Assembly (NCBI GenBank): GCA_964591805.1
Contig: CAZQDD010000008.1
Coordinates: 27,667-91,666, forward strand
Length of the DNA stretch: 64,000 nucleotides
Origin: an uncultured Acidobacteriaceae bacterium
GTDB lineage: Bacteria > Acidobacteriota > Terriglobia > Terriglobales > Acidobacteriaceae
Direction of reading: 5' to 3'
Part shown: in pieces, positions 18,029 to 50,783 of the stretch
Layout: each line of letters opens with the position of its first letter
How positions within the stretch are numbered: position 1 is the stretch's first letter
Program-made: the position numbers and the translations under genes
The notes under the pieces: generated by a model
What the model was told of the DNA's origin: nothing
Databases searched by the model: none
Seen by the model: only the letters and a program-made list of their open reading frames with translations

Positions 18029-18046
18029 AGAAAGCGGAGAAACCCA

Positions 18047-22100: not shown

Positions 22101-22296
22101 CGCGGCACAAAGTCCGGTGGGGTTCGGCAAACAGCAAACTGCGGATTCGGGCGAGGATTGAAACGAATCAGGAAACTCCGTGACCGACATCACACAGACT
22201 GCCTGCCCGGAGGGCATACTATAATTTCTGCAAACGGCAAGGCATCAGGCTGCAACCCGTGCCATGCCCGCTTCAGATCATCTCAAGGACGGACCT

Positions 22297-22977: not shown

Positions 22978-23021
22978 GACTCGATCCGGGCCGTGGTGAC
23001 CTCTGGATCAACCACCATCTG

Positions 23022-25376: not shown

Positions 25377-27692
25377 ATGAATTTCCCCGCAGAGAAATCT
25401 TATCGAATTGCCGTTCTGGTCCTTCTCGTTCTGGTGCTGGCAAATGCGCTGGCCGCAGGGCTGCGCACGGTATCGGATTCCGACATGGGCTGGCACCTTG
25501 CCACCGGCAGATACGTTGTCCAGCATCATTCCATCCCCAGCACCGACGTACTTTCCTATACCGCAGCGGGCATGCCGTGGATCTATCCTCCGTTTGCCGG
25601 AGTACTGCTGTACCTGATCTATGGCGCCTTCGGCTACGCGGGACTCAGCTGGTTCTGCGCCCTGGCATGCGGGGCGACGGTGGCGTACCTGGTGCGCAGA
25701 TGTGATCTTGCGTCTATCGTCTTAGCCATGTGCGCCGTGGAGCCGATTGCGTTTCGCACCGGGCCGCGCGCCGACCTGTTCAACACTGTCTTCTTCACCA
25801 TTTTTCTTGGCGTATTGTGGGCGTTCCAGCGGGGGTCCAACAAACGACTGTGGCCGTTGGCGATCACCATGTTCCTCTGGGTCAACGTGCATCCTGGGTT
25901 CATCCTCGGATTGGCCGTGATTGGCGCCTACCTTTTGCTGGAAGCCTGCGAGTTGCCTTTTGCCGGGCGCCGTCCGGCAGCGCTGGAGCGTCTTCGGCAA
26001 GCGTGGCCGTGGCTCGCCGGAACTGTTGCGGTAACCCTGTTAAACCCCTGGGGCTATAGACTTTATTCCGCCTCGTTCACCCTGGCGGGATTGTAAGGTC
26101 AGCAGCAAGGCGCCTTCAACACATCCGCGTTTATCAACGAATTTCTCTCGGTTCCTCTGTCGTCCCATTTGCTGACACAGCTTGTGGATATCAGGCATCC
26201 CGAGAATGGTTTTACCTGGCTGATGCTGGTTGCCATCGTGGTGATTGCCCTGGCATTGTGGCGAACCCAATTCGGCGCGGCGGTAATCCAGGCAGCGGCC
26301 CTCTATCTTGCGGTCGAGCACGCGCGCTACATCGGGCTCTTCTGCGTGACGACCGTGATCGCCGGTGGCACGCTGCTGGGCGAAGCGTTTAGCACCGGTC
26401 CGCCGGAGCCGGGGCCGCAGTTCCGGCCAAAACCTCAACCACTGATTCGCGTGCCGGTGGTCCTAGCGCTGGTTTTCATTTGTGCCATCTGCGCGATCAC
26501 CGTGCTGCACGCGGCCGATTTCATCTCCAACCGTACCCACGTCGTCTTCCGCACCGAGTCTCGTTTTGGCGCCGGCGAAGCATCCTGGTTTCCCGAGCGT
26601 GCCGCCAGTTTCATCCGGCGCGAACGGCTGCCGGGAAACATTTTCGAGGAGTACGGTCTGGGTGGTTTTGCCGCGTGGCGTCTGGGCCCTGAGCACGCAG
26701 ACTTCATCGATGGGCGCTTCGATCACCTGGCCCCCGCGGTGTTGGTAGAAGAGCAGAAGCTTCTGTCGCAGGCGCCCGGCTCGCCAGCCTGGCAGGCTGC
26801 GGCAGACAAGTGGGGCATCAATGTGCTGCTGATTCTGGAGGCGGAGCCCCGGGCCGTTGACCGCGAGGATGCCATGGCTTTCTGCCAGAGCGCAAACTGG
26901 AGTCCGATCTACATGGACGAAATCTCGCTGGTGCTCGTGCGCAATATTCCATCCAACCGGCCCTGGATCGATCGTCTCCAGATCGACTGCCGCATCCAGC
27001 GGCTCGTGCCACCGCCATCGGCTTCGCGTAAAGACCTCTATGACTACTTCGCCAACGCCGGGGGAATGCTTTACGCATTACAACGCGATCATGAATCTGA
27101 GGCGGCGCTGCGGGGTGCCCTGGTTCTTTACCCGGAGGACCCCAACGCAAGATTGGTGCTGGCACAGCTTTACCAACGTCACCAAATGCTGGACAAAGCC
27201 GAGGCCGAATACCGCGCCAGCCTGGCGCTGAGCGAGAGCGATCAGCCCTGGTATGAGCTGGGGCAAATCTATGTGCAGCAAAGGCGCTTGCCTGAAGCCG
27301 GACAGGCATTTGCGCGAGCTGCCCATCTTTCCGTGAATCCGCTGATTCCATACATGGCGCTGGCGCAAGTAGAACTCTGGCAGAAGCATCCCGAAGCGGC
27401 ACTGGAGGCGTTCTCCGGCGCCGAAAGGAGCAGCCCGTACCGCAGCGGAGCGGAATCGCTGGCGCCCGATCTCTATGCGGAGATCGCCGACGGGCGCTCC
27501 GACGCCCAGTTCATGCTTTCCCATCTCTCCCAGGCGATCGAATTTCAGAAGGAAGCCGTGCGGCTCACTCCGTCCGTCGCCAACCGCTGGAACAAGCTCG
27601 CCGATCTCTATGATTCGGCGGGCCAGTCGGATTTGTCCCAGCAGGCGCGAGAGAAAGCGCGAGAGCTGGACCACAACGCGGGTCCACGCTAA
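25377..27692 (+). pseudogene. GT-C-like polytopic membrane protein with a C-terminal TPR domain, interrupted by one in-frame TAA (26094-26096)
   Basis: Track ORFs 25377..26096 and 26169..27692 are in the same frame (both start coordinates divisible by 3), and no other stop lies between them. The joined product (about 771 codons) is colinear with the intact 787-aa paralogue 46844..49207 across the stop: NPWGYRLYS...stop...IRHPENGFTWL aligns with NPWGWRIYS... Confidence 0.7.
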
Positions 27693-28183
27693 ACCGGAAG
27701 TGTCCCGGATCCCCCCTCAGTTGCCAGCCGCTCGCTTGGCCCCATCGAGCGGCTGGGCAAGTGCACCGCAGTGCGGGGGCGGATTCGTGCCATGATCGGG
27801 CGCTGTCCTGCCGGCCCTAATCGCTGGTTTTGATCAGGTCCAGCCTTTCCCGTGCAGCATCCCAAGCGGTGCCTCGTCCCGGCCCGGTCAGGCGACATCA
27901 AAAACGGTAGCAACAATAAGGATGGCGATCCCACACCTCCGGCGCCCTGGAGAGCACCCCGTCGGAGGTGTGGAATATGGCCAATCCCAGCCTTGGACCT
28001 GTGTCAGATTCCTCAACTGACTCCCCAATGGGCGCAAACCATCACCGTTGGAAATATCAACACTTTGAATATCCAGAGGATTATAGTGTTTAGTTTCAAT
28101 AAATTAAGGAGAATGTATGTGCCAGGTCAGTGATGGATTTTGCAACGGCGACACAATTGCACTTTGCTCTGCCGGAGGCAGGA

Positions 28184-29608
28184 GTGGACAGGGCTCTGAG
28201 GGCAATTTCAATCATGGTTCTAGCGAGCGCATTTTCGGCGGCGGCTTGGGCGGGAATCCATCCGGTTCCCCTGGATCCCAAGCAGGATCCCGCGACCTGC
28301 GCTCAATGCCATGAGGACAAAACGAAGGGCAAGTCGGTCCATTCGGCAATTGCCATGGGCTGTACCAGCTGCCACGAGATCAGAGTAAACAGGGACGTTA
28401 CCCGCACAAAACTCCTCACTACCACTACCGTAGCCCTTTGCATCACCTGCCACGCCGACAAGAAAGCTGCTGACATCAAGGGGAAAATTCATCCTCCGGC
28501 GGTGCGCGACTGTGTGAAGTGCCACGACCCGCACACCTCCGACAACAAAAACCAGCTGCTCAAACCCGAAAGTGGAGACACAAAGGATACGAATCTTTGT
28601 TTGAGCTGCCACAAGATCGGGCTCGACGTCCCGAAAGATGGCAGCCGTCACGCCGCGCTGGATATGGGCTGCGACACCTGCCACGTAACCCACAAGACCG
28701 GCGAGCGCGGCAAGCGCGAATTCGACTTTCACCTGACCAAGGATGCGCCGGCGCTCTGCATCGATTGTCACGACCCGAAAGATGCGGCACTCGTCAAGGC
28801 GCACCAGGGACAGCCGTTTGAGAAGGCGGATTGTCTCTCCTGTCACGATCCGCACCAGTCCACCAGCAAGAAGCTGATGGCGAAGTTCACTCACGTGCCG
28901 TTTGCCGGTGGCCAGTGTGATTCCTGCCACGCCCCGGCCAAGGACGGCAAGGTGGTGCTGATCGCGGCGACGACGAAGGAAATTTGCCTGACCTGCCACT
29001 CCGATAAGGGCGAACAGATTGAGAAGGCGAAAGTGCAGCATCCGGGTGCAGCGGGCGATTGCACCGACTGCCACAGTCCGCATGCCGGCAACTCTCCAGG
29101 GTTCCCAAGGCCGAATCCGGTCGCCGTCTGTTTGACCTGCCATACCGAGCAGGCCGAGCAGGGGAAAAAGGCGCACGTTCACCAGCCGGCGTTCGAGCAA
29201 GGTTGCGCTACCTGTCATGAGCCGCACGGCGGTGATAACTTGCACCTGTTGCGCGCCAAGACTCCGAACGCCCTTTGCCTGGAGTGCCACGGTCCGGATA
29301 CCGAGCCGCCCGCCAAGCTGCAGGGTGAGCACATGGTTACCATCTTCGGCGGCAAGGTGAAGCTGCCGGATACGTATTTCGACAAAGTCGTGGTGCTGCC
29401 AATCCGCTATGGCCTCGGCCATCCCGTGAATGGTCACCCGGTCTCTGACTTGATGGATCCGACAGATGTCACCAAGGTTAAGACTCCGTTGTCGTGCTTG
29501 AGCTGCCATCAGCCGCACTCTTCGGCTCACGCCGACCTGTTGATAAAGGATGAGCAGAACAATATGGAGTTTTGCGACAACTGCCACAAGAACAGATTCA
29601 AGATGTAG
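28184..29608 (+). CDS. Periplasmic multihaem c-type cytochrome, 16 CxxCH motifs
   Basis: Sixteen CxxCH motifs were counted, many as CxxCHxPH. The proposed GTG start at 28184 is preceded by GGAGG (28174-28178). It gives the signal peptide (M)DRALRAISIMVLASAFSAAAWA-G. The track start is 28130. Confidence 0.85.
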   Translation: MDRALRAISIMVLASAFSAAAWAGIHPVPLDPKQDPATCAQCHEDKTKGKSVHSAIAMGCTSCHEIRVNRDVTRTKLLTTTTVALCITCHADKKAADIKGKIHPPAVRDCVKCHDPHTSDNKNQLLKPESGDTKDTNLCLSCHKIGLDVPKDGSRHAALDMGCDTCHVTHKTGERGKREFDFHLTKDAPALCIDCHDPKDAALVKAHQGQPFEKADCLSCHDPHQSTSKKLMAKFTHVPFAGGQCDSCHAPAKDGKVVLIAATTKEICLTCHSDKGEQIEKAKVQHPGAAGDCTDCHSPHAGNSPGFPRPNPVAVCLTCHTEQAEQGKKAHVHQPAFEQGCATCHEPHGGDNLHLLRAKTPNALCLECHGPDTEPPAKLQGEHMVTIFGGKVKLPDTYFDKVVVLPIRYGLGHPVNGHPVSDLMDPTDVTKVKTPLSCLSCHQPHSSAHADLLIKDEQNNMEFCDNCHKNRFKM

Positions 29609-29635
29609 TGCAAGTTTGCGGTGGAGAACAGAGAG

Positions 29636-30988
29636 ATGTTCGCAGTTCCTCTAAATTCGGTTCGCGGTGGCAAGTGGATCGCTCTCGCGCTGCTTCTGTC
29701 CGTCGCCCTAGCCGCACCATCGGCGGCTCACGGTGACAAGAAGAAGAAGAACGCCACTGCGCCCACGCCGAGCGCCCCGGCCAAGCCCAATGATTTCTCA
29801 GCGCTGGTCTGGCCCCAGCCTCCCGACATCATCCGGGTCCGCTACGTGGACTACTTCGCCGGGATGAAGTTCGACCGCACCGATGCGGTTGTGGTGAAGA
29901 AGAAGCAAAGCTGGATGGACCGCATGGCAGGTACTCCAGAGGGATCCGAGAGACAGGAAAAAATGCTCAAGGACTTCCCTTACCAGCTGATCGGGCCTTA
30001 CGGGGTCGCCGCCGATTCCAAGGGCCTTGTGTATGTGGCGGATCAGAAAGTGGGCGCGGTCTTCATCTTTAATACGGAAACCAGGGATGTGCAGCTGATT
30101 GCCAACGGCAAAGACGCTCACTTCGAGTGGATCAACGGCATTGCGATTGACGACAACGATCGCGTCTTTGTCTCTGACGGCAAGCTGGCTCACGTTCTGG
30201 TTTTCAACGCCAAGCATCAGATCGAGGGCCAGATCAGGGAAGGCCTGGTGAATCCGAACGGGTTGGCCATCGATACGGAAAATCGTCTTCTGTACGTGGT
30301 AGACACCCAGCAGGATCAGGTTCTGGTGTATGACCCCGACACCTACAAATTGCTGAGGCGGATGGGTACAGGCGGTAAAAAGCATGCCCTGACTACGCCT
30401 GGAGATTTTGCCGCGCCAACCAACGTGGCGGTCGATGCGGATGGGAATGTTTACGTAACGGACACGCTGAATGACCGCGTGGAGATTTTCGATGCGGACG
30501 GCAACTTCGTCAGCACCTTTGGCAAGAATTGTGACTCACCAGGCTGCTTTGAGCGGCCCAAGGGAATTGCCATTGACTCCGACGGGCACATCTGGGTTGC
30601 TGACGCCATGATGGATCGTTTGCAGGTCTTCAACCGCGAGGGCCAGGTGCTTCTGCCTATCGGCTCGCATGGAAACCTGCCCAGCCAGTTCGACTCGCTG
30701 GTGGGAGTAGCGTTCGACAAGACGAAGAAACGGATTCTCACTACTGAGCAGTACCCGGGCCGGATGCAGGTGTTCCGGTATGTAACCGACGCGGAAGCGG
30801 ATGCCGATCGGCAGCGCCAGGCAGAGGAGCGCAAACAGAAGTATGCAGGCGCGCAAGTGCCGTCTCCAGCCGGCAGCGCGGCGGCAAAGCCGGGAGAAGC
30901 GCCGGCGGTGAAGCCGCCCGAAGCAGGCGTACCGCAGCCGGCCGCGACGCCCGCGCAGGTTAGCGCACAAGGATCCGCGGCGAAGTGA
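29636..30988 (+). CDS. NHL-repeat six-bladed beta-propeller protein with a signal peptide and a C-terminal Ala/Pro-rich tail
   Basis: Six repeats of the type P.G.A.D..G..YV.D....R...F are present. Examples are YGVAADSKGLVYVADQK, NGIAIDDNDRVFVSDG, TNVAVDADGNVYVTDTLNDRVEIFD and PKGIAIDSDGHIWVADAMMDRLQVFN. The N-terminal signal is WIALALLLSVALAAPSAAHG. Confidence 0.8.
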   Translation: MFAVPLNSVRGGKWIALALLLSVALAAPSAAHGDKKKKNATAPTPSAPAKPNDFSALVWPQPPDIIRVRYVDYFAGMKFDRTDAVVVKKKQSWMDRMAGTPEGSERQEKMLKDFPYQLIGPYGVAADSKGLVYVADQKVGAVFIFNTETRDVQLIANGKDAHFEWINGIAIDDNDRVFVSDGKLAHVLVFNAKHQIEGQIREGLVNPNGLAIDTENRLLYVVDTQQDQVLVYDPDTYKLLRRMGTGGKKHALTTPGDFAAPTNVAVDADGNVYVTDTLNDRVEIFDADGNFVSTFGKNCDSPGCFERPKGIAIDSDGHIWVADAMMDRLQVFNREGQVLLPIGSHGNLPSQFDSLVGVAFDKTKKRILTTEQYPGRMQVFRYVTDAEADADRQRQAEERKQKYAGAQVPSPAGSAAAKPGEAPAVKPPEAGVPQPAATPAQVSAQGSAAK

Positions 30989-31110
30989 GCCGCGACAAGT
31001 TTGGGGGCCAAAGGCCGCCGAAACGGAGAGACGAACGACCGCTCCTCCGGAAGCTGTAAACACTGAAGAGATTTAAGGCTCTTCACTATTACCAGGAGGT
31101 TTCACCTTTT

Positions 31111-31986
31111 ATGAAAAAGTTCATGCTCGTCCTCGTTGTCCTCGCCCTTGGCACATTCGTCATGGCGCAAATTGGTGTGCCCACGGGTGACGTTCTGGGC
31201 GCCCACTTGAACTACGGCCGTGGTTGCGCGGCTTGCCACTCACCGCACGGCGGTCAGGCTGGTAACGGCGCGGCCCACACTCAGACTGTCGCAAACTCGT
31301 ACCTCTGGGGCCAGGACACCACTGCCCTGCTAGGTCAGACCATCACGTTCAGCGGCAACACCGTTGAAGTTCTGCCTGCCACTCTTGCTGCCGGTTCGCC
31401 TGACGTCAGCGGCCTCCTGATGTGCCTTAGCTGCCATGACGGCAACTATGCCACTGGCGCCATGATGAAGAACGCGATTTATGAGACCGTGCCGCTAACC
31501 AAGTACGGAGCCAACACGATTCCTACCCTGATGGGCAATGAAGGCGCCCTCGGTGTTGGAGCCGGAAGCTACCTTGCCAACCACCCGGTGGGTCTGAATG
31601 CCACCGTCTCCTGCGGCGGACAGTACAACTGGGATTGCGTCCAGGCTGCCAACGGCACCATCTCGATGACCGGCACCAACTCGGCGCAGTTCGTCAAGGA
31701 CTATGGCTTCTTCGTCTCTCTGTCGGCCTATAACAACACTGCGGTCGTCACCTGCACGAGCTGCCACAACCAGCACTTGATGAACATTGTTTCGGTCACC
31801 AACGGCGCGAAGTCCGGTCTGCCGACTGGCTACTATCAGACCATGTTCTTCATTCGCGCGCCCTACAATGGCGCCAACAGCAGCAACGTAGCGTCGAACC
31901 AGAACGCCCAATTCTGCCGCCAGTGCCACGGTGGCGAAGCGAACGAATCGAACGGCGCCGGCGCGACGATCCCAACCACGTTCTAA
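31111..31986 (+). CDS. Small secreted tetrahaem c-type cytochrome (291 aa)
   Basis: AGGAGG ribosome-binding site and signal peptide MKKFMLVLVVLALGTFVMAQ. The four CxxCH motifs are CAACH, CLSCH, CTSCH and CRQCH. Five further His residues are available as distal ligands. The N-terminal 130 aa are colinear with the N-terminus of the 12-haem protein 36283..38217. Confidence 0.85.
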   Translation: MKKFMLVLVVLALGTFVMAQIGVPTGDVLGAHLNYGRGCAACHSPHGGQAGNGAAHTQTVANSYLWGQDTTALLGQTITFSGNTVEVLPATLAAGSPDVSGLLMCLSCHDGNYATGAMMKNAIYETVPLTKYGANTIPTLMGNEGALGVGAGSYLANHPVGLNATVSCGGQYNWDCVQAANGTISMTGTNSAQFVKDYGFFVSLSAYNNTAVVTCTSCHNQHLMNIVSVTNGAKSGLPTGYYQTMFFIRAPYNGANSSNVASNQNAQFCRQCHGGEANESNGAGATIPTTF

Positions 31987-32002
31987 ATTTGTTGCCTTAC
32001 CA

Positions 32003-32040
32003 GGGGGAGAGAAGTTCTCTCCCCCTTACTTTTGTGTTTG
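32003..32040 (+). terminator. Strong rho-independent terminator directly after the tetrahaem cytochrome gene
   Basis: gggggagagaa (32003-32013) pairs with ttctctccccc (32015-32025), followed by ttacttttgtgttt. It starts 17 nt after the stop codon. Confidence 0.8.
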
Positions 32041-32053
32041 CCAGCGAGGGATC

Positions 32054-33076
32054 ATGAAGTTCCAGCTCTCAGCCTGCGCCCTGCTTTTCGTGGCGTTCGC
32101 TTCGCTTTCAGCCCAGCCCGTCCCATCCCATGCCCCAACAAACTACTCCATCGGCGAGGCAACGGCTCCCATGCAGGTGGTGGGCAAGCCCGTTGCCAGG
32201 GTGAACGGCTCGGTGTTAACGGATAAAGACCTTCAAAGTACGATGTATGCAATGTTTCCGTACGCCCGCCAGCACAACGGTTCAATCCCGAAGGCAATGG
32301 AGCCGGACATCCGGGCCGGCGCGATGAAGATGATGGTCTTCGAGGAACTGGTATATCAGGAAGCATTGCGCCGCAAAATGACGGTGCCTCCCGGAAAACT
32401 GGAGAAGGCCGAGGCTGATTTTGCCCGCCGTTTTAACAGCCCAAGCGAATTCCAGCGGTATTTGCAGGTGGAGTTTCACGGCTCCCGGCCGTTGTTGCGC
32501 AGCAAGATCAGGCGCTCGCTGCTGATTGAGCAGCTATTGAAGCTCGAGATAGAGCAGAAGGCGACGGTCTCAGCGGCCGAACTCAAGGGGTATTACGACA
32601 AGAATCCGGCACGTTTCCACGTCGAGGAATCCTTTGCCTTTCAGACGATCTCCATCCTTCCTCCGGCGAATGCGACCCCGGATCAGTTGAAAGAGGCACG
32701 CAAGCGGGCTGGCGAAGCTCTGACCCAGGCCAAGACGGCGAAAACCTACGAGCAGTTTGGATTGTTGGCGGAGAAGTACAGCGACGACGATTACCGCGTC
32801 GTGATGGGCGATCACAAGGCCGTGGAGCGTGCCAAGTTGCCGCCTTCGGTGGTGCAGGCCCTACTGGCACTCGCACCCGATCAGGCCAGCGGCCTGATCC
32901 AGGTCGAGAACGCCTACACGATCGTCCGCTTGAATAAGCACATCATGGCTGGCCAGCAGAAGTTCGAAGATGTGAAAGCAAGTCTGCGGAAAGAGATGGT
33001 AAGCAAAAAGACCGAGCAGTTGCGCTCGGCCCTCGACCAGAGGCTGCACCAGGGCGCCAAGATTGAGGTACTTTAA
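32054..33076 (+). CDS. SurA/PpiD-like periplasmic chaperone with a parvulin-type PPIase domain
   Basis: Signal peptide MKFQLSACALLFVAFASLSAQP. The SurA_N-like segment is VARVNGSVLTDKDL...FEELVYQEALRRK. The parvulin-like C-terminal part is FGLLAEKYSDD...GLIQVENAYTIVRLNKH. I trimmed the track ORF (31931), whose extension overlaps the upstream gene and terminator. Confidence 0.7.
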   Translation: MKFQLSACALLFVAFASLSAQPVPSHAPTNYSIGEATAPMQVVGKPVARVNGSVLTDKDLQSTMYAMFPYARQHNGSIPKAMEPDIRAGAMKMMVFEELVYQEALRRKMTVPPGKLEKAEADFARRFNSPSEFQRYLQVEFHGSRPLLRSKIRRSLLIEQLLKLEIEQKATVSAAELKGYYDKNPARFHVEESFAFQTISILPPANATPDQLKEARKRAGEALTQAKTAKTYEQFGLLAEKYSDDDYRVVMGDHKAVERAKLPPSVVQALLALAPDQASGLIQVENAYTIVRLNKHIMAGQQKFEDVKASLRKEMVSKKTEQLRSALDQRLHQGAKIEVL

Positions 33077-33283
33077 TTCCATCGCGCGCAGCCTGTGGCG
33101 GAATTCCGGCTGGCTCCGGGTACGGCCGCAGGGAATGGTATTTCAGCCGTGAACGCCATCGGCCCAGGAGCAGCATGGAATCGGGAGCCACTGCGCCATA
33201 TCGCGCAATCCAAGATAGATGCAGACCGCTGCAGAGTGTTAGTATTAACCGATATTTCAACTACTTAGGGATGAGTACAGCGT

Positions 33284-33299
33284 TGGTCTTCTAATTGCT
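33284..33299 (+). promoter_or_regulatory. Candidate sigma-54 (-24/-12) promoter: TGGTCT-N5-TTGCT
   Basis: GG at 33285-33286 and GC at 33297-33298 have the canonical spacing. It lies 35-60 nt upstream of the possible barrel start codons in a 256-nt intergenic region. The -24 half is weak (TGG only). Confidence 0.4.
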
Positions 33300-33332
33300 C
33301 TATCACCGTGTGGTTCTCATTTCGCCACCCCG

Positions 33333-35204
33333 TTGTTTGTGACCACCCGTGAGGGCCTTGTGGTGCGCCGTTCCATACGAAATGCCTTTATTCTTTTGGC
33401 CGGGGCTTTAGTATTGACTGCGCCGCTGCTTGCCCAGCTTCAGGTGGGTGACAACCTCAACCTGCGTCTCAATGGCACACTTTCCGCCGGATACAACGGA
33501 GACTACGGAAACCAGACCAGCTCGGATCACAGCCTTGGGCTGGGCGGCTCCGGCACGGCTTCGGGCTATTACTACAGCCCCAATTTCCTCTCCTTTACGG
33601 CCACGCCATTCTTCAACCAGGCACGGGACAACTCCAGCTATCGTTCCATTTCCGATGCCAGCGGCGTGGACGCGCAGACCGCGCTCTTCAGCGGCAGCCC
33701 CTTTCCGGGATCAATCAGCTATTCCAAGTCTTATAACAGCGAGGGAAACTACGCCGTACCGGGGTTGGCCAACTACACCACCCACGGCAACAGCGACACT
33801 TTTGGCCTTTCATGGGCGGAGCGCGTGCGTGGACGGCCAAGTCTCAGTGTAAGCTTCCAGAGGAGCGGAGGCGAGAATTCAATCTACGGCACCGGGTTGA
33901 ATGCCGATTCCACCGCTCATTCCTTCAACGTGAACAGTTCCTATAACTGGGCGGGCTTCGGCTTGGGCGCCTTCTATTACAAGGGTGCTTCCAACTCGCA
34001 GTTTCCGGAGGTCCTTGCCGGTACGCAACAGATCACCGCGACCAACGCGACGGACCACGGCTACGGTTTCACTGCGTCTCACAAACTTCCCTGGAATGGC
34101 TCAGTGTTTTGCAATTTCAGTAATTCCAGCGTGAACACGAGTTACCTGGGCGAAAGCGAAAACTATTCGGTGGACAATTTCAACGCCGCGGCATCGTTCC
34201 AGCCAACCCAGAAATTGCATGCGTCGTTGAGCATGAATTACTCGAGTAACCTCAGCGGCTCCATTTTCGAAACGGTGCTCGCCTCCGGAGGAGTGGTTTC
34301 ACAATCGACCCAGAGCCCGCCTTCGCACGCTGACGATTTCGCGGCCAGTGCCGGTTATGTGCCTCTGCCGAATATGCTTGTGCAGGGCGAAGTCGAGCGC
34401 CGGACCCAGGACTACTTTGGGATTGAATACGGAAGCAATGCCTACAGCGGCACCGGCAGCTATTGGCGTAAGATCTTCGGTGGCAGTTTTAGTACCACCA
34501 TGTTGGTGGCGGACATAACAATTGATGGCAGCCCCCAGAACTCGCTCGGCTTTACCGTCAACACCAATTTCAACCGCCGGTTCGGAGCCTGGACTGCAAA
34601 TGGTAACTTCAATTATTCGCAGAATGCGGAAACGCTCCTCGTTACCTATACGACTTCCCAATACGGCTACGGGGGTGGTGTGAGGCGGCGCTGGGGGAAA
34701 GTGAGTTGGAGCCTTTCCGCTCAGGCAAACAGAAGCGGTCTAACCGGCTTCACGGGTACCAGCAACCAGAGCACAAGCGCGAGTAGCGGCCTCTCTTACG
34801 GGCGCTGGGCCAACGTGGGTGCAAGTTACTCACAGTCGAGCGGAAACGGAATTCTGACTGGGACCGGGGTCGTGACGGTGCCGGTACCCTCGCCCGTCTT
34901 GCCCGCCAGCTCAGTTATACTCTTTGGCGGCCACAGTTACTCAGTCTCGATCGGCAGTTCGCCGTTGCGCAGACTCACCATCGCGGCGGCCTACGCGAAA
35001 TCGGATAGCAACACTGGGGTCGGTTCGACCGGTTCGACAAACACAACTTCGGTGTTTAACACTCTCGTCCAGTACCAATTCCGGAAGATGTATGTGACGG
35101 GTGGTTTCAGCCAGCTGACGCAAGGATTTAGCGCGTCTGGAACTGTGCCGCAGACCATATCGTCGTTCTATATTGGGGTATCGCGATGGTTCAACTTCTT
35201 CTAG
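33333..35204 (+). CDS. Large outer-membrane beta-barrel protein (porin-like, about 615-623 aa)
   Basis: Signal peptide (VRRSIRNAFILLAGALVLTAPLLAQ; the likely GTG start is at 33360/33363). The protein is Ser/Gly/Asn/Tyr/Thr-rich with alternating hydrophobic residues and has no Cys. The C-terminal beta-signal ends YIGVSRWFNFF with a terminal Phe. Confidence 0.75.
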   Translation: MFVTTREGLVVRRSIRNAFILLAGALVLTAPLLAQLQVGDNLNLRLNGTLSAGYNGDYGNQTSSDHSLGLGGSGTASGYYYSPNFLSFTATPFFNQARDNSSYRSISDASGVDAQTALFSGSPFPGSISYSKSYNSEGNYAVPGLANYTTHGNSDTFGLSWAERVRGRPSLSVSFQRSGGENSIYGTGLNADSTAHSFNVNSSYNWAGFGLGAFYYKGASNSQFPEVLAGTQQITATNATDHGYGFTASHKLPWNGSVFCNFSNSSVNTSYLGESENYSVDNFNAAASFQPTQKLHASLSMNYSSNLSGSIFETVLASGGVVSQSTQSPPSHADDFAASAGYVPLPNMLVQGEVERRTQDYFGIEYGSNAYSGTGSYWRKIFGGSFSTTMLVADITIDGSPQNSLGFTVNTNFNRRFGAWTANGNFNYSQNAETLLVTYTTSQYGYGGGVRRRWGKVSWSLSAQANRSGLTGFTGTSNQSTSASSGLSYGRWANVGASYSQSSGNGILTGTGVVTVPVPSPVLPASSVILFGGHSYSVSIGSSPLRRLTIAAAYAKSDSNTGVGSTGSTNTTSVFNTLVQYQFRKMYVTGGFSQLTQGFSASGTVPQTISSFYIGVSRWFNFF

Positions 35205-36286
35205 CCCAAGCGCGCGGAAGGAGCCTGCGGTTGGCTCTGCGGATGGCCTGCGCTGTACTGCTTCTGCTGACGCCGGCGCTGGCGTCGCGGCAGGCCAAAG
35301 TAGCCGATGTGGGTCCGCCCGACCTTTTGCTGGAAGGCGGCCGCAAGCTGAGCTACGAACGCAGCTTCAGCTCCGAACGCGAAGTAAAACCGAAGCGGGG
35401 CTTCTGGAACAGGGTGCTCGACGTTGTTGCCGGCGAACCGGAGTTCCACTACCTGGTTCGCCCCTATAGTGTCATAACCGATTCCCATGGCCGCATTATT
35501 GTGACCGATCCGGGAGCGCACGGGATCCACATCTTCGACTTTACCCAACAGAAGTATAAGTTCATCTCGCGCCGGGAAAATACGAAGGATCCAATGCATT
35601 CTCCGCAATGCGTCGCCCTGGACGCAGAAGACAACATTTACGTGACCGATTCGGATGCGGGCAAAATCTTCGTGTTCGACTCCAGCGGAAAGTATAAGCG
35701 GGTGATCGGCAGTTTGAGGGGCGGCGAAGGCTATTTCAAGCGTCCCACCGGGATTGCTGTCGATTCCTCCGCACAGCGAATTTACCTGACGGATACACTG
35801 CGCAACCAGGTATTCGTGCTCGATATGCAGGGCAACATCCTGCAGAAAATCGGCAAGAACGGCGAGGGCGACGGGGAATTCAACTACCCCACGGAATTAC
35901 GGCTGGCCGGAGAAAGCCTTCTCGTTGTGGACGCGATGAATTTCCGGGTCCAGGCACTGGATCGCTCAGGAGTTTTTCGCTATGCCATCGGCGCGATCGG
36001 TGACGGTGGCGGATCCATGTTCAGGCCAAAAGGGATTGGAGTCGATTCGGAAGGCGATCTCTATGTGGTGGATGGTTTGTGGGCCGTGGTGCAGATCTTC
36101 AACCCCCAAGGCGATCTACTGTATTCCTTTGGAAAATCAGGGACGCAGCCAGGAGAGTTTCAGTTGCCTGCCGGGCTGTTCATTGATCGCAACGACCGTA
36201 TTTACGTGGTGGATTCCTATAACCGTCGCGTCCAGGTCTTTCATTATTACGGATTGCACCAGCAGACCAAGGGAGGTAGTCAATGA
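35186..36286 (+). CDS. NHL-repeat six-bladed beta-propeller protein (second copy)
   Basis: Repeats include PYSVITDSHGRIIVTDPGAHGIHIFD, PQCVALDAEDNIYVTDSDAGKIFVFD, PTGIAVDSSAQRIYLTDTLRNQVFVLD, PKGIGVDSEGDLYVVDGLWAVVQIFN and PAGLFIDRNDRIYVVDSYNRRVQVFHY. The signal-like N-terminus has an ATG at 35186, overlapping the barrel gene by 19 nt. The alternative start is at 35243. Confidence 0.8.
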   Translation: MVQLLLAQARGRSLRLALRMACAVLLLLTPALASRQAKVADVGPPDLLLEGGRKLSYERSFSSEREVKPKRGFWNRVLDVVAGEPEFHYLVRPYSVITDSHGRIIVTDPGAHGIHIFDFTQQKYKFISRRENTKDPMHSPQCVALDAEDNIYVTDSDAGKIFVFDSSGKYKRVIGSLRGGEGYFKRPTGIAVDSSAQRIYLTDTLRNQVFVLDMQGNILQKIGKNGEGDGEFNYPTELRLAGESLLVVDAMNFRVQALDRSGVFRYAIGAIGDGGGSMFRPKGIGVDSEGDLYVVDGLWAVVQIFNPQGDLLYSFGKSGTQPGEFQLPAGLFIDRNDRIYVVDSYNRRVQVFHYYGLHQQTKGGSQ

Positions 36287-38217
36287 GGTCGAAGGTTTTA
36301 TTGGGATGCCTGATGATCGTATTGGCTGCGGGTAACCTGTTGGCGCAGGTTACGGGCGATGTAATTGGCGTGCACAACCTGGGACCGGGAAGCAAGTCTC
36401 CCATTACCGGTACGAGGAATGACATGTGTTCCTACTGCCATGCTCCCCATTCCGGAACTGGAAAAGGGCCTCTATGGAGTCAGCAACTTTCGACCCAGAC
36501 CTACACTCCCTACACCAGTAGCACCTATGTAGAGAAGGGCAATACCCAGCCGTTTGTAGGCGGCCCCAGCAGTCTCTGTCTTAGCTGTCACGACGGCACC
36601 GTCGCGCCCGGAACGACCCAGCCCTATGGCAAGATAACGATGACTGGGACCATGTACAGCGCCGATGTCTTTGGGACGAACCTTTCCAACTCACATCCCT
36701 TCAGCCTCGTTCTTCCACTCAAGGATTCCATAGTTCTGGTTTCGACCCTTGTTTCAAAGCACCAAACGTCTGATCCAACCGGTGCCATCAAGCTCATCCA
36801 TGGCAATATCGAGTGCACCTCCTGTCATAATCCCCACGTCCAGGCCAAGGATCTGATCTCACTGAACTTCCTGGTCCGCGACAGTTCCAGAGGCCAGATG
36901 TGTCTCGCCTGCCATGACCCAACCCGAACCCTGTCAGGACAGGTCAACCCGATGGCGGTTTGGTCGACGAGCATTCACGCCACGGCTACCAACAAAGTAA
37001 CCATCCAGGCCAGCGTTGGAAGCTACAGTACGGTCGCACTGAATGCATGCATCTCCTGCCATGCGCCCCATGAAGCAGGCGGGCCGTTGCGACTGCTCCG
37101 GGGGCCGAACGAACAGGACTGCATCGCCTGCCACAGCGGCGGTTCGAATATGTCTCCCGCCGCACTCAACATCTATGCCGAGTTCAGCAAGGTCGGGCAT
37201 CCGTTCCCGGCGGGCACCAACACCCATGACGCAGACGAAGGCTTCCCGGCTGCCTCTGGTTCCGTCCCACTCGTACTCCTCAACAATAATCGTCACTCCA
37301 CCTGTGCGGATTGTCATAACGCGCATTCCTCCATGCAAGTGACTACGTTTACCGCGCCACCCGCAATACGCGTCTCGCAGAATGGCATTGCCGGTATCAG
37401 CGCGACGGATGGCACGACGATTGTGAATCCTGCGGTCAATCAGTATGAGAACTGTTTGCGTTGTCATGGCACCAGCGCGGGAAAATCCGTGAACGCCGTC
37501 TTTGGTTACTTGCCGGTGCGGGTAGTTGCCGCCGGCGACCCCTTGAATATCATTCCAGAGTTCAGTTTCACGGCCACGTCGAGTCATCCGGTGACGCACG
37601 TCAGCAACAGTAAGTACGCGCAACCCAGCCTGCTCGCCAACATGTTGGATCTCGACGGAATCACCAAGGGACGCCTGACGGGTACGCAGATTCTATGTAC
37701 CGACTGCCACAACAGTGACGATAACCGCGAGTTCGGGGGTGCTGGTCCGGCCGGCCCGCACGGATCCAAGTGGACGCACATTCTCGAGCGCCAATACCTT
37801 GACAATCAGGCGCCGGGACCGGGACAGCCGATTACGAATCTTTACCCAAATCCTGATCTCAGCGTCAATGGCCCCTATGCACTGTGCGGCAAATGTCACG
37901 ACCTGACCAACCAGATCATGCAGAACACCAGTTTCGTCCAGCACTCGCTCCACATCAACACTGGCTTCTCCTGTTCGGTTTGCCACACCGCTCACGGAAT
38001 GGGTACGACCAGCGCAACCATTACGGGCGAGAGACTGGTGAACTTCGACGCGAATGTGGTTGGCCCGAACGGGGCCACGCCCATCTCCTACAATCGCAGC
38101 GCCAATACTTGCACTCTTACATGCCATGGCTACGCGCATAATGCGGACGGATCGGTCACCGCTGACAAGGCTGCGATTCATGGGGTGAAGAACTTGCCCG
38201 CCGGAAAGGGGAAGTGA
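36283..38217 (+). CDS. Secreted multihaem c-type cytochrome, 11 CxxCH motifs plus one CxxxCH motif
   Basis: The ATG overlaps the upstream stop (ATGA), and GGGAGG lies 6 nt upstream. Signal peptide MRSKVLLGCLMIVLAAGNLLAQ. Eleven CxxCH motifs and CTLTCH (38110-38127) were counted. There is no lipobox Cys. Confidence 0.85.
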   Translation: MRSKVLLGCLMIVLAAGNLLAQVTGDVIGVHNLGPGSKSPITGTRNDMCSYCHAPHSGTGKGPLWSQQLSTQTYTPYTSSTYVEKGNTQPFVGGPSSLCLSCHDGTVAPGTTQPYGKITMTGTMYSADVFGTNLSNSHPFSLVLPLKDSIVLVSTLVSKHQTSDPTGAIKLIHGNIECTSCHNPHVQAKDLISLNFLVRDSSRGQMCLACHDPTRTLSGQVNPMAVWSTSIHATATNKVTIQASVGSYSTVALNACISCHAPHEAGGPLRLLRGPNEQDCIACHSGGSNMSPAALNIYAEFSKVGHPFPAGTNTHDADEGFPAASGSVPLVLLNNNRHSTCADCHNAHSSMQVTTFTAPPAIRVSQNGIAGISATDGTTIVNPAVNQYENCLRCHGTSAGKSVNAVFGYLPVRVVAAGDPLNIIPEFSFTATSSHPVTHVSNSKYAQPSLLANMLDLDGITKGRLTGTQILCTDCHNSDDNREFGGAGPAGPHGSKWTHILERQYLDNQAPGPGQPITNLYPNPDLSVNGPYALCGKCHDLTNQIMQNTSFVQHSLHINTGFSCSVCHTAHGMGTTSATITGERLVNFDANVVGPNGATPISYNRSANTCTLTCHGYAHNADGSVTADKAAIHGVKNLPAGKGK

Positions 38218-38374: not shown

Positions 38375-39901
38375 ATGAAGTTGTTGAAGACTATGTCCAT
38401 GAGTTTGGAGTCACCAGCACGCGCAACGCGCAGCGCACACGGAGATGGATTTGCCGTTCCCCCGCTACGGGTTCTCACCCTGCTGCTGCTGTTTAACGCC
38501 GCCGCCGTTTATGAGTCCATTCATCTGACCTCGCTGGCTGATGCTGATGTCTGGTGGCACTTGCGCACGGGTATCTGGATTCTGCAGAATCACGCAGTGC
38601 CGCACAGCGGAGTATTTTCGCAATACCCGGCTTTGCCCTGGACGGCTGGCAGTTGGGGCTATGATGGATTGCTTGCGGCAGCGTATAAGTTATTCGGACT
38701 ACGGGCTGTCCCGCTGTCGTTGATGGTGCTCGAGGTTACACTCGCGGTGTCAGCATTTGTGCTGGCGGGCGGCAGGCGACGGCATTTCTGCCTCGCTGTA
38801 ATCCTCGCCATTGCCGCGCAGTACGCTTTTCTGCACGTGCGTCCCCTGCCCAATCTTGGCTCGCTCGTGTTATTTTCCGTCGAGTTGGCGTTGCTATTCC
38901 AGAGCCGGCGAACGGGCAGTGTGCGAGCGCTCCTCTGGCTGCCTCTTCTATTCGTCCTATGGACCAACTTCGACATCCAGTTCGTCTATGGACTCTACGT
39001 TTTGGGCCTGTTCTTCGTATCAGCGTTCACTGCAGAGATCTGCCGCCGTCGCGGCCTGGCTTGGACCAGCGATGCGCCCACCTTGCCGATGGGAGTGATC
39101 GCGGCGGTCGCCGCCGTCTCCGCGGTTGCCACCCTGCTATCGCCCTATACCTATCACGTCTACGAAGCTGCGATCAAGAATGCCACCCCGGTAGCATATG
39201 TCGCGCAACACCACGCCATGAACTTCCGCCACCCGCAACACTACGTGTTATTGTTGCTGGCCATGGCCGCTTTCCTTACTCTAGGAAGGCAACGCTCGCG
39301 TGATCTGTTCAAAATTACGCTTATGATCGCCAGCGCCATGGTATCGTTTCGCATGCAATGCGATGCCGGGTTCCTTGCCTTGGCCTCCGTGGCTGTGATT
39401 GGCGATGCATTCGCAATCGATAAGTCTGAGACAGAGCAGGAGGCTGGCGCACACCTTGGGAAATGGGAATCCCTGGCGGCGGCCGGACTGCTGTTCGTAG
39501 TGACTGCGGCCGCGGCCTACCGTATTCCCTCCGGCAGCCAAGCGCTGTTGAAGAAGATAGGCGAGAGCTTTCCCGTGCAAGCCTCCGATTACATTCGAGC
39601 CAACCAGCTTCCGAATCCCTTGTTTAACGAATATCAATGGGGAGGTTTCTTGACCTGGTATTTGCCCGGGTACCCGGTGGCCATCGACGGACGTAGGGAC
39701 CTTTATGGCGAAGACATCAACCTTCGCTATTTCCAGGTAACAAGCGCCGAGATTCCTCTCAACGCCGATCCCGACTTCGCCAATGCCCAGACGATCTTGC
39801 TACCTGCCAACTCTCTTATGGCCGAGGCGCTTGCTACCATCCCCGACTTCAAGGTGGTATACCGCGACGCCTTAGCCACGGTACTGGTGCGGCAGAACTG
39901 A
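38375..39901 (+). CDS. Polytopic membrane protein, GT-C-like paralogue family (short form without TPR)
   Basis: 508 aa, about 11-13 TM segments. The first-loop motif is ADADVWWHLRTGIWILQNHAVP, and the C-terminal block is NEYQWGGFLTWYLPGYPVAIDGRRDLYGE. It is clearly homologous to 45326..46807 and more distantly to 25377..27692 and 46844..49174. Confidence 0.75.
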   Translation: MKLLKTMSMSLESPARATRSAHGDGFAVPPLRVLTLLLLFNAAAVYESIHLTSLADADVWWHLRTGIWILQNHAVPHSGVFSQYPALPWTAGSWGYDGLLAAAYKLFGLRAVPLSLMVLEVTLAVSAFVLAGGRRRHFCLAVILAIAAQYAFLHVRPLPNLGSLVLFSVELALLFQSRRTGSVRALLWLPLLFVLWTNFDIQFVYGLYVLGLFFVSAFTAEICRRRGLAWTSDAPTLPMGVIAAVAAVSAVATLLSPYTYHVYEAAIKNATPVAYVAQHHAMNFRHPQHYVLLLLAMAAFLTLGRQRSRDLFKITLMIASAMVSFRMQCDAGFLALASVAVIGDAFAIDKSETEQEAGAHLGKWESLAAAGLLFVVTAAAAYRIPSGSQALLKKIGESFPVQASDYIRANQLPNPLFNEYQWGGFLTWYLPGYPVAIDGRRDLYGEDINLRYFQVTSAEIPLNADPDFANAQTILLPANSLMAEALATIPDFKVVYRDALATVLVRQN

Positions 39902-39985
39902 CCCTCCTGGGCGCAGACAATCCGTGACGAACGAAACGTAAAACTGCTACATCGTTCTGATCAAACGTGCGCGGACACGAATGCG

Positions 39986-41488
39986 TCAGTTCCCATCCCG
40001 ACTGTAGATCAGGTAGGCCGCAGCACCGAAATCAGTTCGTTTGTAAAAGATATGGCCGTCGGAGAAGTGTACCAGTCGATAGCCGATTCTGTTCAATGGA
40101 CGGTTTACAATCTTGAAATCGCTTTCCGGGGAAGCGCTGTAGATAATGACATATTCCGGAGCGACGGATTGCAGTTCATCCAGGTTCGTCTCAAATCCAT
40201 AGAATGGCTGCCCGTAGTGGATGTAGGTGGTTGGAATATTGATCAGAATGTCGTGGTTAAAGTAGGCCTGCACTGCTGACATTCCATAGGTGTAACCGAA
40301 AATCGTGGACTTGTCTGCTCCAACCTGTCTCAAGAACCTGGCGGCATCCTCGGAACCGCTGTAAGGGTAAAGGTAATCATTTCTCATTGACACTCCGGCG
40401 TCCCAGATGTTCAGGCAAAACAGGCACGCCAGCAGCGCTATCATCCCGTTCGTTGCCAGGCGCGCAGTGCCGGTAAAAGACCGGGCCTCATTGTCGCTTG
40501 GCCATGCAACCCACAGGCCCGCGATCGCCGCCAGGAATACCGTGCCGTGATGGTGCGGCCGGCCAGCAACCATCACAAACAGCAAAATCATTACCGAGAC
40601 AGAGAGCAGAAACGGCAGCAGCTTCCGCCGCATGCAGCACCATCCTGCCGCTGCCAGCAGGAAGAGAGAAGAAAGTAGCCATTGATCGAAAAAAGCAAAG
40701 TCGACAGCATCCCCAAACCGGCTCAGACTGACCACATGTCTCGTGCTGGCCGGCATCTTGTCCGGCGCGAACATAAGCATGTCATGGGTCGGCTTCAGAA
40801 TGACAAAGAGGAATAGAAAGACGAGAAGCACGGCGCCAATGTAGAAAAAATAGCGCCGCCGCAGTGTTTCGCCCAGCCGTGGCCAATTCCTGATTGCCTC
40901 GACCAGGTAGCACAACCCAAAAGCCGCGGCCAACACAATCCCGTGCAAGGAGACATTTGCGAGCAGAATCAAGGCCAGCGCCATCCGGCCTGGATGTTCG
41001 CGATCACTATAGAAGGAAGCAGTAACGAACAGTAGCAACGGCAACAGGTTGTAAGAGCGTGCTACTACTGCGTACTGGTAGACGATAACGTAGGAAAACA
41101 CCAGCAGGTAACGAAGCGGGCGGGGAAACGGCGCCTTCCACAGAATGAAAGCAACTCCCAGCGCGGCACATATCGCGCCAATCACACCCATCGCACCATA
41201 AGGTGCATGGAAAACATGCTGTACGATCCAAAGAATAGTGTGCCACAGGCCGGGCGTGCCTTCGTAGCGTAATTCGTAAAACCAGATTGACTTCAGATCG
41301 AGATCACGCGCAATCAGCCATGTCTGGGATTCGTCAGCCCAAGGCTCGTGATGCCGCAGGATGAAGGCAACCAGAGTTACCCAGATACCAAACACCCCCA
41401 GATCGGCGATATGCCACCAGCGGCTCTGGAGTCCCGCCGTCTGCTGTTCGGGCAATTCGAGTGTGATCTTTTCTCGAGTGGTCGTCAT
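39986..41488 (-). CDS. Polytopic membrane protein, probable GT-C-fold glycosyltransferase (ArnT/PMT-like)
   Basis: 500 aa, about 11 TM segments. An acidic first-loop motif HEPWADESQTWLIARD follows TM1, as a DE-type GT-C motif would. The C-terminal domain is soluble. GC content is lower than the surroundings. Confidence 0.6.
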   Translation of the reverse strand: MTTTREKITLELPEQQTAGLQSRWWHIADLGVFGIWVTLVAFILRHHEPWADESQTWLIARDLDLKSIWFYELRYEGTPGLWHTILWIVQHVFHAPYGAMGVIGAICAALGVAFILWKAPFPRPLRYLLVFSYVIVYQYAVVARSYNLLPLLLFVTASFYSDREHPGRMALALILLANVSLHGIVLAAAFGLCYLVEAIRNWPRLGETLRRRYFFYIGAVLLVFLFLFVILKPTHDMLMFAPDKMPASTRHVVSLSRFGDAVDFAFFDQWLLSSLFLLAAAGWCCMRRKLLPFLLSVSVMILLFVMVAGRPHHHGTVFLAAIAGLWVAWPSDNEARSFTGTARLATNGMIALLACLFCLNIWDAGVSMRNDYLYPYSGSEDAARFLRQVGADKSTIFGYTYGMSAVQAYFNHDILINIPTTYIHYGQPFYGFETNLDELQSVAPEYVIIYSASPESDFKIVNRPLNRIGYRLVHFSDGHIFYKRTDFGAAAYLIYSRDGN

Positions 41489-41541
41489 GCCGCTCTCAAT
41501 GGAAGCTGTCCGCTTGCGGACGTACGCTCCAAGTCTTTACG

Positions 41542-43431: not shown

Positions 43432-43584
43432 GATGGGTATTCCCCTCGTTTGCTCTGACTGTCTGTACTCCTGATCGGGAGTATGAACTCGTCGCCGTAT
43501 CCAGCTTCATCGATTCGGCGCCCGCTACAACGGAGTAACTCAACAGTGAGTCGATTGTCTCCTGTTCGGTACCACCGCCGGGGC

Positions 43585-45117: not shown

Positions 45118-45325
45118 CCCAAATAGTATAAGAATGATTGCAAGGTAAAACTATACCAGCTCCCACACCCTGGAAATGATTTCTGTCCCATCTTGCCTGG
45201 CTAAGGCATCGGTGACATGGACCAGGTCCAGACCTTGGCGCCACGCGGACACCCGCCGCCCTCTCGGCGGCGCAAGGTCCGGCGTTTTCTCCCGTAGGGT
45301 CTTGGATAGCGAGGTGTTCCAGATC

Positions 45326-46807: not shown

Positions 46808-46843
46808 AGTCCAGATTGTCCGGAGCCTCGCCGCCTGGAATAT

Positions 46844-50745: not shown

Positions 50746-50783
50746 ATTCAAGATTTGTGCTGTTCAAGGAGCAGGAGCCCGGC

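Follow-up and report, generated by a model that had tools for sequence, protein, structure and literature searches.

A seven-gene cluster of an uncultured Terriglobales bacterium resembles the Geobacter omcE locus and likely encodes an extracellular electron-transfer apparatus

Clusters competent for OmcE nanowires have a shared signature: beside OmcE itself they encode a large barrel, two multihaem cytochromes and beta-propeller lipoproteins, and often, though not universally, an adjacent set of glycosylation genes (GT2, GT4, GT39, TPR proteins); OmcE homologues have been listed for five phyla, the Acidobacteriota not being among them (bioRxiv 10.1101/2025.10.22.684050). In both OmcE and OmcS, a histidine of one subunit coordinates the haem of its neighbour (PMC9473688). 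Within the Acidobacteriota, a three-gene core termed EET1 ('porin-NHL-CytC') has been reported from 49 metagenome-assembled genomes (MAGs; Terriglobales and UBA7540) of Swedish bogs; its porin and cytochrome gave structural matches to MtrB and OmcE (7TFS), and the core was transcribed through the peat profile (Fiorito et al., May 2026, bioRxiv 10.64898/2026.05.27.727921). Here we analyzed a 64-kb stretch of contig CAZQDD010000008.1 (hereafter the window) from an uncultured acidobacterium of the Terriglobales, and in it a cluster of seven open reading frames (ORFs), g1 to g7, which all lie on the + strand at 28130-38217, as the initial annotation had placed them. The cluster very likely encodes an extracellular electron-transfer (EET) apparatus homologous to the omcE cluster. 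Rather than a wholly new category, this is the OmcE-type nanowire/porin-cytochrome kind in a phylum where only the core of such a system had been noted; new here are the OmcE homology of g3 and g7, the homology of the propellers, the MtrA-like g1 and a gene order that matches the Geobacter omcE locus.

Translation of the ORFs and motif counting gave 16 CxxCH motifs for g1, four for g3 and 11 for g7, where one additional CxxxCH raises the number to 12 haems; outside these three genes, every ORF of the window has at most one haem motif. The products named by the initial annotation were all recovered with the same haem counts and domains. It had also given each of them a signal peptide, and the N-termini of all seven proteins indeed show a positive charge, a hydrophobic stretch and an AxA-like site, as judged by motif inspection rather than with a predictor.

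The third gene, g3 (31111-31986, + strand), encodes a 291-aa protein with four CxxCH motifs that falls in the OmcE superfamily and is a candidate for the extracellular filament (major) subunit. As a single sequence it had no match in the PDB (phmmer). The profile of its family placed two OmcE structures on top, those of Desulfuromonas soudanensis (9yuq_N, E=3.3e-12) and Geobacter sulfurreducens (7tfs_A, E=1.3e-4), no further match coming below E=0.03, and hhalign of the g3 family against the OmcE family (26 proteins) returned a probability of 99.1% (E=6.7e-19). By sequence, g3 is a homologue of OmcE, whose filament structures are solved (PDB 7TFS and 9YUQ were used for comparison). An alignment of g3 with 33 homologues (34 sequences, 31-80% identity to g3) revealed that the four CxxCH motifs (C39, C105, C215 and C269), H32, H158 (as HP) and H222 are invariant, and that H46 is present in at least 90% of the aligned sequences, so that the conserved histidines number exactly eight for four bis-His haems. 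Also invariant are the CLSCHDG context of haem 2 and a few further residues, for example G38, F194, Y198, F268 and E279.

A second member of the family is contained in g7 (36283-38217, + strand; 644 aa), which combines a complete OmcE-like tetrahaem module (residues 1-211) with an eight-haem extension (residues 212-644) and whose 12 haem motifs are all conserved in 61 homologues. Residues 1-115 are homologous to g3, and full-length Geobacter OmcE aligned with residues 1-211 by BLASTP (29.5% identity, E=5e-15). The g7-family profile (19 homologues) matched 7tfs_A across the whole of OmcE (E=8e-23) as well as 9yuq_N (E=6.5e-18); judged from these alignments, the N-terminal third of g7 belongs to the OmcE family. 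The extension matched PF22113 (MtrC/MtrF domain II/IV) with 56 bits at a cut-off of 30, and the profile also gave a weak match to the surface cytochrome OmhA (6qvm_A, E=2e-5, residues 187-338). At this level of similarity the extension resembles MtrC/OmhA-type surface cytochromes; the OmcA/MtrC family model TIGR03507 did not match g7.

One signature is common to g3, g7 and OmcE, namely an N-terminal His followed by CxxCHxxH-CxSCHDG-(N/D/S)HP-CxxCHxxH-CxxCH. Its positions are H32, C39, H46, C105, H158, C215, H222 and C269 in g3, H31, C49, H56, C99, H138, C178, H185 and C207 in g7 (a pattern present in 19-61 homologues) and H31, C51, H58, C103, H149, C201, H208 and C226 in OmcE.

The similarity extends to the surrounding genes. 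We located G. sulfurreducens OmcE in the protein collection and read out its locus, which runs purHDE, a small cytochrome, resB, ccsB, a 9-haem cytochrome, an 8-haem cytochrome, an NHL/DUF5128 propeller and OmcE, followed by a 752-aa protein without family (the barrel), GT2, a polytopic protein with TPR repeats, GT2, GT4 and sugar-modifying enzymes; this order matches the published omcE cluster signature. In the window, g1-g2-g3-(g4)-g5 is colinear with the cytochromes-propeller-OmcE-barrel series of Geobacter. Common to both loci are the eight haem-ligating histidines of an OmcE-family tetrahaem protein, an NHL/DUF5128 propeller and paired-CXXCH multihaem cytochromes that are homologous between them, and a very large barrel, which in Geobacter stands directly after OmcE and here is separated from g3 by g4. 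They also have in common resB-ccsB nearby and polytopic TPR membrane proteins in the flank, and the two further multihaem cytochromes of the omcE cluster correspond here to g1 (16 haems) and g7 (12 haems). The acidobacterial locus differs in that it encodes two OmcE-like proteins, one of them fused to eight more haems, in that one 16-haem cytochrome replaces the 9-haem and 8-haem pair of Geobacter, and in that a SurA-like peptidyl-prolyl isomerase (PPIase) precedes the barrel while a second propeller and the extended OmcE-like g7 follow it.

Of the two propellers, g6 (35186-36286, + strand; NHL and DUF5128 in Pfam, E=7e-26 for DUF5128) is the closest counterpart of the Geobacter omcE-cluster propeller, which matched it over the full length by BLASTP (35% identity, E=5e-54). 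The same query matched g2 (29621-30988, + strand; NHL, SGL and DUF5128) with 29% identity (E=2e-32), and g2 and g6 are paralogues of each other (30% identical). We propose that g2, an NHL six-bladed propeller with a type-I signal peptide, is an assembly or scaffold factor. In g2 and its orthologues the mature part starts with a lysine run, D-K-K-K-K-K (window 29730-29760), and the protein ends in a charged Pro/Ala-rich tail of ∼65 aa (window 30790-30988) that g6 lacks. The gene between g3 and the barrel gene, g4 (32054-33076, + strand), encodes a SurA-like periplasmic chaperone with one parvulin PPIase domain (SurA_N_3, SurA_N, Rotamase_2 and Rotamase in Pfam), whose best PDB sequence match was Escherichia coli SurA (E=1e-10); its true start is probably the ATG at 32054 (340 aa, as in public gene calls) and not 31931. 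Two NHL propellers and a SurA-like parvulin had been expected from the outset, and these domain assignments agree with that.

The initial annotation had linked the cluster to cytochrome filament systems and suggested the omcS neighbourhood of Geobacter as a parallel. The link to filament systems stood, and the nearest relative turned out to be the omcE cluster, given the OmcE homology of g3 and g7 and the propeller identities of 35% and 29%, not omcS: PDB searches with g3, g7 and their profiles, which went up to E=1 or 10 depending on the search, brought up no OmcS chain, an OmcS-like hexahaem protein is missing here, and the haem-motif count of the ORFs gave no six-haem protein anywhere in the 64-kb window. 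In the Geobacter osc operon, OscH is said to be a PpiC-type PPIase and OscE and OscF NHL-repeat proteins. The osc literature assigns OscH to folding and OscE/F/G to secretion (Shen et al. 2025, Cell Chem Biol, as summarized in PMC13194489), in line with the neighbourhood described by the initial annotation. On this account, both systems have a nanowire cytochrome gene (here a putative one) clustered with more multihaem cytochromes and with genes of these functional classes.

Compared with EET1, g5-g6-g7 corresponds to the published core by gene order, domains, structural matches and Terriglobales host, as far as the published description goes, and shares with it the DUF5128 NHL 'scaffold' and the extracellular multihaem cytochrome. 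The core of the preprint comprises three genes with one NHL propeller, and its cytochrome has 13 haem motifs including non-canonical ones, as against 12 in g7. The text and supplements of the preprint do not mention a tetrahaem OmcE homologue, a 16-haem MtrA-like protein or a PPIase, and a gene-order comparison with Geobacter omcE did not come up in it, although no search was aimed at one. The initial annotation knew of no characterized system of this kind from acidobacteria; its core, however, has been described there genomically and transcriptomically as EET1.

The genes g1 and g5 would supply the parts of a conduit through the outer membrane. The 492-aa product of g1 (28130-29608, + strand) arranges its 16 CxxCH motifs in eight paired-CXXCH units (Paired_CXXCH_1 x8 in Pfam) and is an MtrA/DmsE-like, presumably periplasmic cytochrome that we propose as the feeder entering the barrel. 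Its best PDB match was MtrA (6r2q_A, E=2.9e-20), its score with the DmsE-family model TIGR03508 (172.5 bits) stayed below the cut-off of 192.2, and the two cytochromes encoded in the omcE locus of Geobacter matched it by BLASTP with E=2e-26 (9-haem) and 3e-18 (8-haem). The 623-aa product of g5 (33333-35204, + strand) is a giant predicted outer-membrane beta-barrel, the proposed sheath for g1 and/or exit or anchor pore for the OmcE-like cytochromes. It had no match in Pfam or NCBIfam. An AlphaFold2 (AF2) model built from 35 homologues (mean predicted local distance difference test score (pLDDT) 70.4) contains ∼28 long beta-strands, and the protein ends in ...SRWFNFF, where W619, F620, F622 and F623 are invariant in the 35 homologues (a W-F-x-F-F aromatic beta-signal); the outer-membrane barrel ending in Phe that had been annotated is thus also predicted by modelling. 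Foldseek placed MtrB on top for this model (6r2q_B, E=3e-11, template modelling (TM) score 0.46, 11% identity), and together with the MtrA match of g1 this result favours the conduit reading of the initial annotation.

With the Mtr, Pcc and Ext conduits the cluster thus has in common an MtrA-homologous periplasmic rod, a giant barrel with an MtrB match and a surface cytochrome with an MtrC-type domain. It departs from MtrCAB in the 16 haems of g1 (10 in the Shewanella-type rod) and the ∼28 strands of g5 (26), no curated Mtr-family model passed, and the surface cytochromes here are of the OmcE family; relative to Mtr/Pcc systems, moreover, the operon also includes propellers and a SurA-like chaperone. 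The likenesses are at the base of an alternative explanation, in which the cluster would be a plain Mtr/Pcc porin-cytochrome conduit without any filament: g1 would sit in g5, g7 would be the sole surface cytochrome, g3 would be a periplasmic shuttle comparable to STC/CctA or PpcA, and the propellers would act as scaffolds as in EET1. The homology of g1 to MtrA, the structural match of g5 to MtrB and the MtrC-type domain of g7 all suit this explanation, small periplasmic cytochromes are common in EET clusters, and the polymerization of g3 is something that we infer. Against it, g3 is homologous to the filament protein OmcE and not to c3, STC or PpcA shuttles, the gene order is that of the Geobacter nanowire locus, and Mtr/Pcc conduits described so far need neither two propellers nor a SurA-like chaperone.

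The conservation of the cluster bears on the same question. The whole region has identical copies on bog and peat metagenome contigs, and the named relatives are MAGs (Terriglobales, Terracidiphilus and Candidatus Sulfotelmatobacter); no cultured isolate was seen among the named records with related loci. A scan for g3 relatives with one genome per species gave 80 loci, every one from a MAG and all named as Acidobacteriota lineages except one labelled Binatia. All seven genes, g1 to g7, were present in order in 40 of these 80 species-representative loci and g3 to g7 in 63, the remainder being mostly incomplete contigs or variants with g1-g2 nearby and a second, inverted g3 paralogue after g7. 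Since the ordered block recurs so often, the seven-gene arrangement goes far beyond chance, and the block is conserved in related genomes, a point on which the initial annotation had made its reading depend. Across the loci g4 and g5 are adjacent, with g4 always directly upstream of the barrel gene. Conservation is widest for the core trio of porin, NHL protein and cytochrome (g5-g6-g7), which again fits a conduit without a filament.

The rates at which the proteins diverge point the other way. Median identity to the window protein across genomes was highest for g6 (68%), followed by g1 (67%), g7 (59%), g2 (56%) and g4 (54%), while g3 (44%) and g5 (39%) were the two fastest-diverging members of the block. 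In Geobacter and Shewanella, the fastest evolution is reported for surface and nanowire cytochromes, and periplasmic cytochromes embedded in conduits change slowly (PMC12977616), a pattern mirrored here by the fast g3 and g5 and the slow g1. That g3 diverges about as fast as the barrel fits surface exposure and argues against a periplasmic shuttle.

Furthermore, g3 has a conserved regulatory element of its own. A terminator-like hairpin on the + strand at 32002-32036 (11-bp stem with 7 G-C pairs, T-rich tail) begins 16 nt after the g3 stop codon and is the strongest terminator-like site in the 27.5-38.5 kb region. A hairpin with a T-tract was found at most 90 nt downstream of 58 out of 92 g3 homologues (63%), as compared with 0-6% of cases behind the other six genes. 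We propose that it is an attenuator that raises g3 mRNA above that of the downstream genes; operons for pili and fimbriae commonly use a partial terminator behind one gene to obtain more of a structural subunit than of the proteins that assemble it. Such an element behind g3 is a further point against the conduit without a filament, which we regard as rather doubtful overall.

The g3 gene is also duplicated in several genomes, and the paralogue pairs are reminiscent of the major and minor subunit pairs of filament systems. The second paralogue lies inverted just after g7 in twelve loci and in tandem with the first in two, and most of the second paralogues that we inspected have no terminator-like hairpin. 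Taken together, the conserved hairpin, the fast divergence and the duplication are signs that g3 is a major surface subunit; that it forms filaments we consider an evenly balanced proposition. The g3 family further has a conserved tail after haem 4 (window 31930-31986; ...QFCRQCH..SNE..G...T.F), in which E279 is invariant and a terminal Phe is present in most members, whereas the OmcE proteins of Geobacter and Desulfuromonas end right after the fourth CxxCH. The tail could be a recognition signal for the barrel or a propeller, or part of the subunit interface.

On balance, we are inclined to read the cluster as an Mtr-like conduit that feeds OmcE-family extracellular cytochromes, with g3 as the likely filament subunit, and the conduit and the filament are probably two halves of one system. 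Electrons would pass from an inner-membrane quinol dehydrogenase to g1, the 16-haem MtrA-like rod in the periplasm, which would enter the g5 barrel as MtrA does in MtrB and carry them across the outer membrane. There, g7 at the outer mouth of the barrel would receive them. Made in excess by means of the attenuator, g3 would polymerize head to tail, one histidine ligating the haem of the neighbouring subunit. As for g4, it may chaperone the giant barrel, the coil-rich cytochromes or both, and g4, g2 and g6 would serve as periplasmic folding, export or assembly factors, much as is reported for OscH and OscE/F/G (PMC13194489). The final acceptor is probably insoluble or polymeric, such as Fe(III) minerals, humics or the particulate organic matter of peat.

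Several observations weigh against this interpretation. The AF2 model of g3 (from the 34-sequence alignment) had a pLDDT of only 51, and Foldseek returned only noise for it; such a failure is uninformative, because it is expected of a coil-rich haem protein modelled without its haems, but with no structural match the OmcE fold of g3 is a matter of sequence similarity. Eight conserved histidines for four haems are what any bis-His tetrahaem cytochrome would show. Compared with OmcE, g3 has an insertion of ∼50 aa before haem 4 as well as the 18-aa C-terminal tail, and it is less close to canonical OmcE than is the OmcE module of g7; in consequence g3, g7 or neither may polymerize. The barrel shows no detectable sequence similarity to that of Geobacter: the g5 family and the 752-aa protein of the omcE cluster gave an hhalign probability of 0.1%, a comparison of limited sensitivity as the Geobacter side was a single sequence, and no BLASTP match. 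The Geobacter propeller is a lipoprotein, whereas by motif inspection g2, g6 and their orthologues have type-I-like signal peptides: a lipobox-like motif was present in only 1 of 58 g2 orthologues, and in g6 and its orthologues the motif Cys precedes the hydrophobic core, so that it is not a lipobox. Nor does Geobacter offer a precedent for the attenuator argument, as no terminator stands directly behind its omcE. Finally, searches against Pfam, NCBIfam and PDB recognized no glycosyltransferase in the window, while GT2 and GT4 are found in the Geobacter flank, and no inner-membrane quinol-oxidizing cytochrome is encoded in the window.

The same hardware could also run inward, with Fe(II), reduced humics or a partner cell as the source of electrons for lithotrophy or syntrophy. 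Mtr-type conduits are bidirectional (PMC9473688, which cites bidirectional Mtr rates), and in Desulfovibrio ferrophilus IS5 clusters of NHL propellers and multihaem cytochromes were linked to electron uptake (Deng et al. 2018, PMC5815863; we found no mention of a porin in that paper). We regard inward flow as highly unlikely here: no lithotrophic electron sink is indicated in the window, and the peat MAGs that carry the EET1 core were reconstructed as organotrophs (bioRxiv 10.64898/2026.05.27.727921), though direction is not readable from sequence. The reading of the cluster as a multihaem redox enzyme complex of the periplasm, such as a nitrite, hydroxylamine or sulfite reductase together with accessory proteins, an outcome that the initial annotation had kept in view and to which weak sub-threshold matches to NrfB, NrfH and HmcA models might point, was rejected as having next to no likelihood, as there is no CxxCK catalytic motif, all NrfA, HAO and octahaem-reductase matches fall below the curated cut-offs, the top structural relatives are OmcE, MtrA and MtrB, and a 28-strand barrel belongs to the conserved block.

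Within the favoured reading of a conduit that feeds OmcE-family cytochromes, g7 might have a more specific role as a polar adaptor or cap that links the trans-outer-membrane conduit to the cytochrome nanowire, an idea that we consider unlikely as it stands. Residues 1-211 would dock on one end of the g3 polymer through the OmcE-type His-haem interface. The other end of g7 would not be extendable, because its chain continues in cis into the eight MtrC/OmhA-like haems, and these haems would either contact the barrel-embedded g1, at the base of the filament, or face the acceptor, at its tip. The authors of the D. soudanensis OmcE study state that the OmcE operons which they examined encode no candidate for such a base, tip or stopper (bioRxiv 10.1101/2025.10.22.684050). 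If true, a g7 cap would bear on how cytochrome nanowires are anchored, initiated or terminated.

More generally, one operon here combines an Mtr-like conduit, two OmcE-family cytochromes (one minimal, one fused), a SurA-like chaperone and two propellers, and could be a compact natural system for the export, anchoring and charging of nanowires, an acknowledged question for OmcS and OmcE. Acidic soils and peat are dominated by acidobacteria of the Terriglobales. More CO2 is produced anaerobically there than methanogenesis accounts for, and inorganic electron acceptors are in short supply. If our reading is correct, the cluster would give Terriglobales a route to respire on particulate organic matter or minerals, possibly along OmcE-type filaments, and would add the Acidobacteriota to the five phyla reported to have OmcE homologues.

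No promoter could be assigned to the cluster. A sigma-54 scan gave 35 matches, with 38.7 expected, and a sigma-70 scan fewer sites than expected. Rfam and tRNA scans detected no RNA genes in the window.

Eight polytopic and/or TPR proteins without family are encoded on the two sides of the cluster. Upstream, on the + strand, lie g0a (23115-25256; 713 aa, polytopic, without family match), g0b (25377-26096; 239 aa, polytopic) and g0c (26169-27692; 507 aa, transmembrane segments and TPR). The downstream flank (38375-49207, mixed strands) contains the polytopic g8 (38375-39901), g9 and g10 (39986-41488 and 41542-43431, - strand), an amine oxidase, a 501-aa paralogue of g8 (45302-46807; 37% identical to it) and a 787-aa polytopic TPR protein (46844-49207, - strand) that is a paralogue of g0b/g0c. 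A crude hydropathy scan found 7-13 hydrophobic segments in each of g0a, g8, g9, g10 and the 501-aa protein. Searches of g0a, g0b, g8, g9 and g10 against Pfam, NCBIfam and PDB gave no family, the 501-aa protein likewise has no match in these collections, the TPR repeats are the only family match of the upstream flank, and BLASTP of the flank proteins against the Geobacter polytopic TPR protein, which has the same architecture and lies among glycosyltransferases, found nothing. The 787-aa protein, encoded 20 kb away, is matched in its N-terminal part by g0b and in its C-terminal part by g0c (50% and 35% identity, respectively), which makes these two a split gene, be it through a frameshift, as a pseudogene or as a genuine split; all four near-identical contigs that we examined have it. 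The upstream flank (g0a-g0c) is conserved in close relatives, and g8- and g9-like genes adjoin g7 in many other acidobacterial genomes. An association of the upstream flank with the cluster, in glycosylation or assembly, is possible, and the polytopic proteins may, at a guess, be unrecognized GT-C-type glycosyltransferases for the surface cytochromes.

Further out, genes with likely supporting functions are found at 50757-58195 on the + strand, where Pfam identified ResB and CcsB (System II), a HAMP histidine kinase, a sigma-54 NtrC-type response regulator and HemA (glutamyl-tRNA reductase); resB, ccsB, the sigma-54 two-component pair and hemA are thus 12-20 kb downstream of g7. System I (ccm) genes have been reported in EET1 MAGs (bioRxiv 10.64898/2026.05.27.727921), and both cytochrome c maturation systems may be present in the host group. 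On the other side, the region at 13115-23000 encodes NeuB (sialic/nonulosonic acid synthase family), a HAD phosphatase, a TPP enzyme, a gamma-glutamyltranspeptidase and an amino-acid permease, in addition to a 470-aa protein without family and a small CcmH/CycH-type TPR protein. NeuB, ∼8 kb upstream of g0a and ∼13 kb upstream of g1, is a hint that genes near the cluster serve the synthesis of nonulosonic-acid glycans. At the start of the window (1-12000), GC skew is about -0.17 up to ∼10 kb and then near zero, with a GC content of 0.54 at 10-12 kb; the shift may reflect a change of coding strand.

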